The notes under the pieces: generated by a model
Told to the model about the DNA's origin: nothing
The model's input: the letters and a program-made list of their open reading frames with translations, nothing else
The model's database searches: none
Made by a program: the position numbers and the translations under genes
Shown here: piece after piece, positions 9,149 through 27,973 of the stretch
How positions within the stretch are numbered: position 1 is the first letter of the stretch
Layout: every line of letters starts with the position of its first letter
NCBI GenBank assembly: GCA_025839675.1
Contig: CP104013.1
Coordinates: 1,230,001-1,262,000, forward strand
DNA: 32,000 nt
Source of the DNA: Candidatus Lokiarchaeum ossiferum
GTDB taxonomy: Archaea; Asgardarchaeota; Lokiarchaeia; Sigyniarchaeales; Promethearchaeaceae
Direction of reading: 5' to 3'

Positions 9149-9261
9149 GATACTAGTTAAACAAAATTCTTATAAATTAATTTTCCTCTTAATTAATAAA
9201 ATCTGCATAACTTTTCCTTATGCAATCATTAATATTTGATTAAAAGAAATAACAATTAGTC

Positions 9262-10056
9262 ATGAGTGCAATTGAATATTTAAATCACATTTTTAACCAA
9301 GATAGTCGGAATATGCATCAATTAGCGGATAAATCCATTGATTTAATGATAACCTCGCCACCTTACAACGTCACGAAACAGTATGATGAAAATTTGAATT
9401 TAGATGAATATTTAACCTTAATTTTTGAAGTGTTAAGAGAAACTCTACGAGTATTAGCTCCAGGAGGAATTATTGGTTTAAATGTTGCAAATTTGGGAAG
9501 GAAACCTTACATCCCGCTTGATTGCTATATTATCGAAATCTTAACTGATTTAAAGTATACAATTTTGAATGAAATCATCTGGAACAAAGCAGCGAGTGCA
9601 GGTGGAAGTTGTGCGTGGGGAAGTTGGCTTTCAGCATCAAATCCAACATTACGTGATGTCCATGAATATATAATTATTGCTCAAAAAAAAAAATCCAATT
9701 CTGATAAATGCAGAGTCAACCAGTCAAAAGACATTGAATATTTACCTTTCTTGGATGGAAAAAAAAGCACCATGACTGAAAAAGAACTATACTCAAATAT
9801 TTGGACTTTTGGAGCAGAAAGTGCTAAAAAAGTGAACCATCCCGCCCCCTTTCGAGTAGAACTACCCTATCGCTTGATCCAAATGTATTCAAAGAAGAAT
9901 GATCTCATACTGGATCCTTTTATGGGTTCAGGATCAACTGCAATTGCAGCGATTATAGCTAAAAGAAATTTTGTGGGGTATGATACTAATTTAGATTACA
10001 TTCAAGCAGCTAATCGAAGAATTCTTGAATTTGTACAGAAATGGGAGAAAAAATAG
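9262..10056 (+). CDS. DNA methyltransferase, beta-class N4/N6 family (N6_N4_Mtase-like). The SPPY motif suggests N4-cytosine specificity.
   Basis: Motif IV is IDLMITSPPYN (SPPY at nt 9355-9366). Motif I is C-terminal, LILDPFMGSGSTAIAA (nt 9913-9939). Having IV before I is the beta-class order. Confidence 0.85.
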   Translation: MSAIEYLNHIFNQDSRNMHQLADKSIDLMITSPPYNVTKQYDENLNLDEYLTLIFEVLRETLRVLAPGGIIGLNVANLGRKPYIPLDCYIIEILTDLKYTILNEIIWNKAASAGGSCAWGSWLSASNPTLRDVHEYIIIAQKKKSNSDKCRVNQSKDIEYLPFLDGKKSTMTEKELYSNIWTFGAESAKKVNHPAPFRVELPYRLIQMYSKKNDLILDPFMGSGSTAIAAIIAKRNFVGYDTNLDYIQAANRRILEFVQKWEKK

Positions 10057-10057
10057 A

Positions 10058-10897
10058 ATGGCAAGGAAACGAACAAGAACAAAAGATTTTGGAGTTTCAA
10101 AACGGGAAAGTCATGATTCTTCTGCATTTTATGCTTCACGTCTTTATGAAACGATAAATTTCTCTTCAAAACACGACATTGTGGAAAATTCAAAAGAATT
10201 TTTAAGATTAAATATTAATCCTATGCAAAAACATTCTTATTCGAATCTGATTAATAAAATTCCTCCATCAAGCATCCATTTGGTAATTCTTGAAGTAAAC
10301 TTGGGGATGATTGAATCAACAGAATCATTAAATCTCAAATTGGAAAAGTATTCCGAGAGAATTCATGAACTTAATAAAAAATTGATAACCGGAGGGAGAA
10401 TAGTTATAATCGTTTGCAATATCATCAAAATTGATGAGAAATCACCGTTCTATGTTCCTCTACATGCGAGAATAACTAAATTTTTGTTAAAACAACACTT
10501 TTTTCTGCGGGGAAATATTGTTTTAGTTGAAGAACAGGGAATAATGGAACAATCGACAGACCCAATATCCAATAAATACAAGATTGCAATCATTGCTTCT
10601 AAAGAAAGGATGAAGCGCGAAAAAAAAAATAAAAACAGGAATTTTGAGAAAACTGATACAATTTCTCGAGATGAGTTTCTGTCAGCAACCAAGTCGATTT
10701 GGTATCCAAATCTACCAAAATTTGAAAAATTAGAAAATGAAAAGAGTATTTCTTGTGAATTAGAATATTACAAACAGCTTATTCAATTATATTCTTTTCA
10801 GGAAGATGTTGTTTTGATTTTGAAAAATGATATTTGGGACAATTTTTTAAGATCTTGTCATAAAATTCGCAAAAATTGTTTCTGCTTTAACCAATGA
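10058..10897 (+). CDS. Methyltransferase-fold paralogue of the upstream gene, with ablated catalytic and SAM-binding motifs (candidate pseudoenzyme)
   Basis: It is collinear with the 9262 product: SIHLVILEVNLG vs SIDLMITSPPYN, ITGGRIVIIVCN vs APGGIIGLNVAN, YVPLHARI vs YIPLDCYI, and QLIQLYSFQEDVVLILKNDIWDN vs RLIQMYSKKNDLILDPFMGSGST. The ATG at 10058 lies one nt after the upstream stop codon (10054-10056), and a GGGAG lies 10 nt upstream. The frame stays open for 279 codons in AT-rich DNA. Confidence 0.65.
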   Translation: MARKRTRTKDFGVSKRESHDSSAFYASRLYETINFSSKHDIVENSKEFLRLNINPMQKHSYSNLINKIPPSSIHLVILEVNLGMIESTESLNLKLEKYSERIHELNKKLITGGRIVIIVCNIIKIDEKSPFYVPLHARITKFLLKQHFFLRGNIVLVEEQGIMEQSTDPISNKYKIAIIASKERMKREKKNKNRNFEKTDTISRDEFLSATKSIWYPNLPKFEKLENEKSISCELEYYKQLIQLYSFQEDVVLILKNDIWDNFLRSCHKIRKNCFCFNQ

Positions 10898-11020: not shown

Positions 11021-11440
11021 ATGAGCACAGACCAATCCTTGCAAATAACCCTTCGTCTTGCCGAAATTTTAAACGATTCACAAAAACTTGGTAATTATGA
11101 GTGTCTTCCTTCCAATGATCTTATTTCTTATGAGGAACTAGTTTCATTTTCCGAAATGGTACGAGAAATATTTAAGAGCAGCTTCGCAGCTACCATCGTA
11201 GTAGATCACCATGGGTTATTGATTCATGAAGATATTGCCCAAGATGGTATTAAAGCTTGGTTAGTAGCACTCTCATTTATTTCTTCCCGAACTTTTATCA
11301 AAACAGAACAATTTGCGACTTACACCCATATTTTAAGTTCAAAAATTAAAATTATTGTACTTACTAATGAAAAAGGGACAAATACAGAATTAAATCAAGA
11401 ATTAAAACTCATTTTAGCACTTTTTCCATCTTTCCATTAA
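11021..11440 (+). CDS. Small soluble protein, possibly roadblock/LC7 (MglB-like) fold
   Basis: It is 139 aa. The segment SFAATIVVDHHGLLIHEDIAQDG...ALSFISSRT...IKIIVLTNEKG resembles the roadblock beta-alpha pattern. This is only a weak by-eye match. Confidence 0.3.
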   Translation: MSTDQSLQITLRLAEILNDSQKLGNYECLPSNDLISYEELVSFSEMVREIFKSSFAATIVVDHHGLLIHEDIAQDGIKAWLVALSFISSRTFIKTEQFATYTHILSSKIKIIVLTNEKGTNTELNQELKLILALFPSFH

Positions 11441-27256: not shown

Positions 27257-27973
27257 ATGAACATTTCTAATTATATGCCTACAATCTTATCTCTCCCAAT
27301 TTCATTATCTGAGCCTCTACCATCTGAATTTTCGAGTGATGATGTCCGCTATTCTGAACGTTTTGTGGAGTATTGTCTAAAAACCTTTTCCAAGCAAAAC
27401 GATATAATTTTTGATCCTTTTGCAGGTTTTGGAACCACGCTACTAATTGCAGAAAAAATGAAGAGAACTTCCTTTGGTGTTGAAATTGACAAACAACGCG
27501 TTGATTATATTACTTCAAAACTCAATACAAAGGAATCCATAATCCATGGAGATATCACAAACTTATCTTCGATTGCGATGAAGAACTTCGATCTTTTACT
27601 CACATCTCCACCCTATATGAACTCATTTGAACAAGAGAGCCCTTTTGATAACTTTCAATCAAAATCCAATTATTCAGAATACTTAAATAAATTGGAGATG
27701 ATTTTCCAAGAACTGGAACCTTTTATGAATAAGGGAGGAAATTGTCTTGTTGAGGTGGCTAATTTGTATGCTGAAGGAAAATTAACGACATTAGCATGGG
27801 ATATTGCGGGTCGATTAAGAAAATTTATGGACCTTCAACGAGAATTTATCATCTGCTGGGAAGGAGAAGAATTAAAAGAGAATCGAGGCATCTATGGATA
27901 TGGATATGATCATAGCTATTTACTCGTATTCCACAAGAGAGAAGAGAGTAATTCAAAAAAGAACTCACTGTAA
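27257..27973 (+). CDS. Minimal SAM-dependent methyltransferase with an SPPY motif. It is a circular permutation of the N6_N4_Mtase-type fold, with motif I before motif IV.
   Basis: Motif X/I is RYSERFVEYCLKTFSKQNDIIFDPFAGFGTTLLIAEKMKRTSFGVEID (DPFAGFGTT at nt 27413-27439). Motif IV is FDLLLTSPPYMN (SPPY at nt 27605-27616). Then come KGGNCLVEVAN, REFIICWE and HSYLLVFHK, which mirror the motifs of the 9262 product. Confidence 0.7.
   Translation: MNISNYMPTILSLPISLSEPLPSEFSSDDVRYSERFVEYCLKTFSKQNDIIFDPFAGFGTTLLIAEKMKRTSFGVEIDKQRVDYITSKLNTKESIIHGDITNLSSIAMKNFDLLLTSPPYMNSFEQESPFDNFQSKSNYSEYLNKLEMIFQELEPFMNKGGNCLVEVANLYAEGKLTTLAWDIAGRLRKFMDLQREFIICWEGEELKENRGIYGYGYDHSYLLVFHKREESNSKKNSL

Follow-up and report, generated by a model that had tools for sequence, protein, structure and literature searches.

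Two adjacent genes were analysed on the forward strand of a 32,000-nucleotide (nt) stretch of Candidatus Lokiarchaeum ossiferum, an Asgard archaeon of the family Promethearchaeaceae (the whole stretch is hereafter called the window). Together, they very probably encode a two-subunit methylase with a pseudo-enzyme partner, in which gene 1 (subunit A) has intact motifs and gene 2 (subunit B) is a paralogue of the same fold without them. From the comparative evidence presented below, we consider it likely that both products are assembled, as its subunits, into a single heteromeric class-beta DNA amino-methyltransferase. A more specific proposal, about as likely as not, is that Promethearchaeaceae carry the first prokaryotic DNA methyltransferase in which a catalytic chain and its pseudo-enzyme paralogue form an obligate heterodimer, that it arose by subfunctionalisation of a homodimeric Type II enzyme, and that its dead subunit recognises the target in trans through an N-terminal arm and Arg, Lys and His residues. 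A previous reading of the DNA letters (hereafter the sequence-only reading) had described an active methylase and a maintained dead paralogue, likely its obligate partner. This description is supported by the constant association of both genes (14 of 14 loci), intact open reading frames (ORFs), low ratios of nonsynonymous to synonymous substitution rates (dN/dS), complementary loss of conserved residues and natural gene fusions.

An intact methylase and its degenerate paralogue

The two same-strand ORFs occupy the whole interval 9262-10897 (+) of the window. Both genes and their diagnostic motifs are listed below, clades A and B designating the groups of gene 1 and gene 2, respectively, and the parent family a large set of intact methylases related to both.

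9262..10056 (+): gene 1, subunit A, a catalytically intact class-beta amino-methyltransferase of 264 amino acids (aa), without the N-terminal motif of the family
9355..9366 (+): SPPY, catalytic motif IV of gene 1, without variation in clade A or the parent family
9913..9939 (+): DPFMGSGST, motif I, the S-adenosylmethionine (SAM)-binding loop of gene 1, as read from sequence and alignment
10058..10897 (+): gene 2, subunit B, a pseudo-methyltransferase of 279 aa, class-beta fold core kept, without motif IV, motif I and the C-terminal helix
10292..10303 (+): EVNL, degenerate remains of motif IV in gene 2; S, first P and Y kept in 0-5% of clade B, second P in 73%
10817..10843 (+): ILKNDIWDN, degenerate remains of motif I in gene 2; retention in clade B 0% for D, P and the two G, 36% for F

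Gene 1 matched the Pfam family N6_N4_Mtase (PF01555) with an expectation value (E) of 2e-45 and 155.8 bits, over the gathering threshold of 26.7, and the PADLOC MTase_II profile PDLC03350 (312 positions) with E 1e-84 over profile positions 56-301. Its closest solved structure was TTHA0409 (2zie, E 2e-19), and its automatic name in NCBI is 'Modification methylase MthZI'. SPPY was located at residue 32 and DPFMGSG at residue 218, motif IV being thus N-terminal to motif I as is typical of the class-beta order. The Pfam match and the alignment agree with the previous assignment of this gene as an active methyltransferase of the N6_N4_Mtase family. The SPPY motif suggests that N4-cytosine would be its target base, adenine being also possible. 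Identity of gene 1 with members of the parent family ranged from 51 to 57%, and the N-terminal motif was absent from every member of clade A (at least 45). Active subunits of the type found in Promethearchaeum syntrophicum MK-D1 (locus L001, 4034-4975, and locus L094, 2961-3977) carried a Lys/Arg-rich C-terminal tail of about 60 to 80 residues, which is absent from gene 1 of the window and might bind DNA non-specifically.

Homology and collinearity of both genes, as well as their common fold, had been proposed from the sequence and were recovered by independent means. BLASTP aligned the two products with 24% identity over 184 aa (E 8e-6). Gene 2 matched the same PADLOC profile as gene 1 (E 1e-28, positions 7-258 of 312), and reached N6_N4_Mtase in Pfam with E 8.5e-5 and 23.0 bits, under the gathering score of 26.7. 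Its AlphaFold model had a mean predicted local distance difference test score (pLDDT) of 77 and a predicted template modelling score of 0.80, and a Foldseek search with this model retrieved TTHA0409 as best match (E 8e-13), followed by MboIIA, PvuII, RsrI, N4CMT and CcrM. In databases, gene 2 is 100% identical to the hypothetical protein NEF87_001011 of Candidatus Lokiarchaeum ossiferum.

The profile and alignment check also confirmed the loss of motifs I and IV in gene 2: SPPY aligned with EVNL and DPFMGSGST with ILKNDIWDN. Neither the SAM-binding FxGxG of motif I nor the acidic residue of motif II was found in gene 2, and its chain stops about 25 residues past ILKNDIWDN, so that the last (C-terminal) helix is missing. 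What gene 2 retains from the family, and the position of its dimer joint, are given below.

10073..10147 (+): TRTKDFGVSKRESHDSSAFYASRLY, ancestral N-terminal motif, gene 2 residues 6-30; F11, G12, R16, F24 and Y25 invariant in 124 parent-family and B sequences; B-only, absent from clade A
10391..10513 (+): GGR (residues 112-114), PLH (134-136) and LRG (150-152) of gene 2; family-invariant, kept in B, lost in A
10565..10567 (+): I170 of gene 2, dimer 'tenon' position by homology with Ile163 of TTHA0409
10655..10702 (+): DTISRDEFLSATKSIW, gene 2 residues 200-215; family-invariant block, kept in B, partly deleted in A

In clade A, R114 is changed to I, the H of PLH to D and MRG to I-x-x. Likewise, the DTISRDEFLSATKSIW block shows a 3-residue deletion in this clade and its TKS is replaced by T-N, whereas clade B shows no variation at I202, D205, F207, L208, T211, K212, S213 and W215. 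The block is probably part of the dimer cage and/or of a DNA-binding surface.

The basic 47-aa N-terminus of gene 2 had been taken for an added extension. This interpretation was rejected: a strongly conserved motif, TSxFGVSKRESHDSSxFY, is common to clade B and the parent family and is missing from clade A only, i.e. it is ancestral and was lost in clade A. No PDB chain spanning this family motif was found, and residues 1-20, with the motif, were of low confidence (low pLDDT) in monomer models.

Conservation, complementary loss and natural fusions

Loci holding clade A or B genes were read in the window, in L001-L005 and in L089-L098 (L002 and L004 being second contigs of the L001 and L003 loci, and the contigs L097 and L098 ending inside B). 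A was directly followed by B on the same strand in all 14 readable loci, in agreement with the expected conservation of the gene pair in related genomes. Four of these loci had been drawn by a DNA pattern specific to A, and hence were not picked via B; B was present in the four of them. A scan of viral contigs with the same A-specific pattern gave no match. Hosts of the pair were all Promethearchaeaceae wherever the source gave a name. Flanking genes varied among the loci, and only L089 was syntenic with the window.

Gaps between A and B ranged from -7 to +25 nt over the 10 junctions measured, eight of which were within -7 to +5. GGAG or GGGG-like runs preceded the start of B in most junctions, the exceptions among the nine other printed junctions being the MK-D1-type L001 and L094. 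In the window, the relevant features are as follows.

9149..9261 (+): upstream intergenic region, the sole non-coding stretch before gene 1 and the presumed site of the promoter of the two-gene operon
10043..10047 (+): GGGAG, purine run resembling a Shine-Dalgarno sequence, within the end of gene 1 and 11-15 nt upstream of the ATG of gene 2

The TAG stop codon of gene 1 (10054-10056) is followed by a 1-nt spacer and by the ATG of gene 2 at 10058. The sequence-only reading had set the start one base too late, at 10059; its GGGAG within the end of gene 1 and its coordinates for SPPY, EVNL, DPFMGSGST and ILKNDIWDN were all right. Such a junction, combined with GGGAG, would lead to co-transcription and probably to coupled translation of both genes. 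The promoter is presumed to lie in the upstream region because the junction between gene 1 and gene 2 is too tight to hold one, and none was identified in 9149..9261.

A profile search of 1.84 billion representatives yielded about 21 full-length B-type clusters at 50% identity, the second ORF being thus intact in relatives as had been anticipated. All these representatives were devoid of SPPY and DPFxGxG and kept the N-terminal motif, and the pattern TKSxW was present in 19 of 21; in addition, 33 columns were invariant across 22 clade B sequences. Four ortholog pairs compared by the method of Nei and Gojobori (NG86) gave dN/dS values of 0.34, 0.24, 0.20 and 0.12 for gene 2, below 1 as predicted, and of 0.11, 0.27, 0.13 and 0.04 for gene 1. 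Purifying selection acts on both genes. Missing catalytic motifs, a Pfam score under threshold and the annotation as hypothetical protein could be those of a decaying duplicate, pseudogene or relic without function. However, the ORF remained intact in about 21 divergent clusters, with invariant columns and low dN/dS, and the frame stays open in DNA of 33% G+C. Given this conservation and these dN/dS values, a pseudogene reading of gene 2 is rejected and can be regarded as effectively refuted; maintenance rather than decay, as first proposed, agrees with the intact ORFs, the selection values and the adjacency in every readable locus.

The way in which conserved residues are distributed between A and B was examined in an alignment of 95 parent-family, 10 A and 22 B proteins, in which 123 columns were at least 85% conserved in the parent family. 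Among these, 59 were kept only in A, 24 only in B, 8 in both and 4 in neither. Columns kept only in A comprised SPPYN, NxANxGRxPY, WxK, SxAWGSW, NPxLRDxHEY, HPAPF, ELP, DPFxGxG and the C-terminal helix; those kept only in B comprised the N-terminal motif, R of GGR, H of PLH, MRG, R191 and L206/T209-K210-S211. Thirteen residues were invariant in the 124 parent-family and B sequences, and 11 of them were absent, changed or partly kept in A (F11, G12, R16, F24, Y25, R114, R146, G147, K210 and S211, plus F205, which is only partly kept). Such complementary retention is, as far as an alignment can tell, the signature of subfunctionalisation, and it is an argument that neither subunit is complete without the other.

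Additionally, the two proteins were found as natural fusions. The protein P0238 (598 aa) matches full-length gene 1 with 59% identity over its residues 1-268 and gene 2 with 39% identity over residues 302-562, both halves being joined by a Lys-rich linker in the same order as in the operon. It shares a 90%-identity cluster with P0380 (MCF2139007.1, also 598 aa), which comes from Candidatus Harpocratesius repetitus (Promethearchaeaceae) and is encoded on a 4.36-Mb contig of a closed genome, P0238 being from an independent assembly. A Joint Genome Institute metagenome contained another, divergent fusion of both genes, P0267 (540 aa). Fusion in operon order is a classical sign of proteins that act together, in this case in a 1:1 ratio. 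As a side observation, fusion linkers were Lys- or Arg-rich, and P0267 displayed a very different composition, rich in Ala, Arg, Gly and Pro.

These data also bear on two other possible roles of subunit B. It is possible that A is a self-sufficient homodimer and that B regulates or modulates it, as a dominant-negative protein titrating A, as a specificity changer or as a timer in the establishment of restriction-modification. A does keep every catalytic and SAM-binding motif as well as the tenon residue of the dimer joint, class-beta enzymes normally homodimerise (PMC7544214), and the pair stands beside restriction genes in some loci, where control of methylation matters. This is nevertheless unlikely: A has lost the 24 conserved positions kept by B, ten of which are invariant across the parent family and B; a covalent 1:1 fusion suits a structural partner better than a titratable regulator; and A without B was never seen in 14 loci. 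Somewhat less probable still is a B repurposed as a DNA-binding protein, methyl-mark reader or transcription regulator that acts alone and is tied to A by the operon only. Its invariant basic and polar residues and basic N-terminus would fit such a function, and canonical SAM binding would not be possible for B; the fusions, the retained dimer-joint positions and the strict complementarity point instead to a joint action with A.

Parent family, association with ThaI and genomic context

Relatives of gene 2 fell into two sets, namely proteins of about 280 aa without catalytic motifs (clade B) and hundreds of intact methylases of about 300 aa (the parent family). The latter were hosted by many archaea and bacteria, and gene 2 was 30-38% identical to its members. 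A scan of genome contigs with the clade B alignment gave no clade B locus among the matches listed; 80 parent-family loci were sampled among these matches and a tandem paralogue pair was found in none of the 80.

A gene for a ThaI-family restriction endonuclease adjoined about nine parent-family loci. ThaI cleaves CG/CG and its cognate M.ThaI produces N4-methylcytosine (m4C) at CGCG (PMC11033074). Nitrososphaera, the source of many parent-family loci, is reported to possess a persistent orphan group of CGCG m4C methylases (PMC10609329), and we infer a link between this group and the parent family. A ThaI-family gene (PF15514, E 7e-30) was also found directly after the A-B pair in P. syntrophicum MK-D1 (L001) and in its relative L094, where the pair probably provides the modification function of a Type II system. 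SPPY and this association with ThaI suggest that the pair would form m4C, possibly at CGCG. In Candidatus Hecatella orcuttiae (L008, 6128-6385, and L030), the called ThaI fragment beside a parent-family methylase is 85 aa long, and tblastn aligned 207 aa at 63% identity; the ThaI-type gene of these loci may be disrupted or mis-called.

This context also bears on the nature of the substrate. RNA or single-stranded DNA is the substrate of some class-beta enzymes (PMC7544214), and weak matches to the RNA methylase families UPF0020 and Trm14 were obtained over the SAM-binding region. These matches span the generic SAM loop only, however, the parent family and the MK-D1 pair adjoin ThaI-type restriction endonucleases, and the nearest relatives of known structure are actual or putative DNA methylases. 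Methylation of RNA rather than DNA by the pair is consequently very improbable.

The A-B-ThaI cluster is inverted relative to the flanking MFS and RFC genes between L094 and MK-D1, and this inversion suggests a mobile or invertible cassette. Other defence-type genes were observed in the vicinity of the pair: an Mrr_N/Mrr_cat nuclease in L092 (6014-6919, -), an extra methylase of 425 aa with permuted motifs in L091 (4992-6269, +), and TIR plus ORC/Cdc6-like genes in L005 (1428-3824, -).

The neighbours of the pair in the window are housekeeping genes (FMN reductase, Fe-S protein, phosphoesterase). Since no restriction gene is nearby, the pair of L. ossiferum is probably an orphan or epigenetic methylase. 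An ORF of 139 aa lies at 11021-11440 (+), 123 nt past gene 2. It had no match in Pfam, NCBIfam or PADLOC, was recovered with 70% identity in the syntenic relative L089 only and was absent from the other pair loci; it is not counted within the methylase system. A third methyltransferase gene was present at 27257-27973 (+). It encodes 238 aa with a reversed motif order (DPFAGFGTT near the N-terminus and SPPY around residue 118), matched PADLOC MTase_II with E 2e-29 in two stretches, and has no obvious restriction gene beside it. Finally, CTAG was under-represented in the window, with 26 occurrences observed and 44.6 expected from a Markov model.

Proposed mechanism and comparison with known systems

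Class-beta methylases function as dimers and divide the labour between protomers: of the two Mod protomers of EcoP15I, one is responsible for DNA recognition and the other for methylation, and the protomers of CcrM hold different strands (PMC7544214). Their dimers share a 'mortise and tenon' joint, in which the tenon of TTHA0409 is Ile163 (PMC10406627). By ungapped alignment, this position corresponded to L174 in the parent family, L130 in gene 1 and I170 in gene 2, and L was the residue found there in 92% of parent-family, 100% of A and 77% of B proteins. The residues of gene 2 that map near the cage of N4CMT (F207, L208 and W215) are invariant in B, in which the tenon and cage positions are both hydrophobic and conserved. 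We infer that an A:B heterodimer would be built on the ancestral homodimer interface.

In the proposed mechanism, subunit A would be in charge of SAM binding and catalysis. Subunit B, which seems to keep the fold core, the dimer-joint positions, the N-terminal motif and a series of invariant, mostly basic or polar residues, would provide in trans an N-terminal arm as well as invariant Arg, Lys and His residues, which could plausibly contact the DNA. Its most likely task would be DNA binding or recognition and completion of the substrate cleft. Candidates for this non-catalytic role, in the numbering of gene 2, are the N-terminal motif, R114, H136, R151-G152 and T211-K212-S213. As to its origin, the gene of a homodimeric, ThaI-family-associated Type II methylase may have been duplicated, and the copies may then have lost complementary functions; a local duplication of the parent gene is the parsimonious scenario. 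The two genes would thereby fix a division of labour that homodimers such as EcoP15I Mod and CcrM reach with identical subunits.

Several observations weigh against this scheme or parts of it. In a neighbour-joining tree, A and B each formed a group with 100% bootstrap and were sisters in 0 of 100 replicates, so that phylogeny does not show a tandem duplication in situ, this being a weak test owing to the very long branch of B. The roles attributed to the B-only residues are deduced ones, as a close homologue with a DNA-bound structure is lacking. L094 also encodes, divergently upstream of its A-B-ThaI cluster, an intact parent-family methylase of 307 aa with the N-terminal motif (1425-2348, -), and this full-length enzyme, instead of A-B, could be the cognate methylase of ThaI there. 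As to the role of the pair in L. ossiferum, tblastn detected no ThaI-like sequence in the 32-kb window, and CGCG was not avoided in it (19 observed, 14.3 expected from a Markov model), a count that is uninformative.

If the proposal is true, the pair would have evolved independently of METTL3-METTL14 and MTA1-MTA9 as their operon-encoded counterpart, and the class-beta division of labour would have been dissected by nature. The DNA-reading and catalytic roles are genetically inseparable in homodimers; in the pair, evolution would have parted them. Associations of an active methylase with a pseudo-enzyme would then not be solely eukaryotic, and pseudo-enzyme subunits could arise among genes of the restriction-modification type. 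There may also be consequences for annotation, as pipelines label gene 2 'hypothetical' and treat gene 1 as a methylase that stands alone: should gene 1 depend on gene 2, assignments of Asgard methylomes to genes would be wrong.

The single-gene parent family (PADLOC PDLC03350, closest structure TTHA0409, 2zie) has the same fold and motif order as the pair. It consists of one gene, presumably acting as a homodimer with all motifs in one chain, whereas the features of the pair are split over two genes, one of them dead. The two-polypeptide Type II methylases M.AquI alpha/beta and M.EcoHK31I alpha/beta use two adjacent genes for one methylase activity, in which a C5-methylase fold is split or is complemented by a small accessory peptide. 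Contrary to these complementary fragments, each gene of the pair covers a whole paralogous fold, as indicated by the profile positions matched by gene 1 and gene 2. Type IIS-like M1/M2 and DpnM/DpnA are adjacent paralogous or analogous methylase genes that are both active, one per strand or substrate; the pair resembles them in its adjacent methylase genes and differs in that one of the two is dead. No precedent for a prokaryotic pair of active and inactive DNA methylases was found in the literature searched, which covers only part of the journals, and a review of methyltransferase hetero-oligomers is silent on prokaryotes.

The proposed sharing of tasks, one protomer recognising or holding the DNA and the other catalysing, is likewise that of M.EcoP15I Mod2 and CcrM (PMC7544214). 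These enzymes have two identical, competent chains, whereas the asymmetry of the pair is genetic and its non-catalytic chain lacks SAM-binding and catalytic motifs. The listed class-beta heterodimers are all eukaryotic, namely MTA1-MTA9 and METTL3-METTL14, the latter with a dead METTL14 whose motif IV is eroded (PMC7544214). Like the pair, for which this is shown by sequence, they associate an active subunit with a catalytically eroded paralogue of a class-beta-type methylase. Motif IV of METTL14 is EPPL, compared with EVNL in gene 2, and a dead subunit of the METTL14 type is thought to serve substrate binding (PMC7544214). Both eukaryotic systems belong to the MT-A70 family, have RNA or ApT DNA targets and require extra subunits, whereas the pair derives from an N6_N4_Mtase parent, resides in an archaeal operon and would have an independent origin. 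In Pfam, no MT-A70 domain was found in gene 1 or gene 2, the only families reported being N6_N4_Mtase and generic SAM-methyltransferases, and MTA1 chains were only distant Foldseek matches of the gene 2 model (E about 1e-5). Very probably, the pair works like METTL3-METTL14 without belonging to that family, and its place is with the Type II class-beta methylases.

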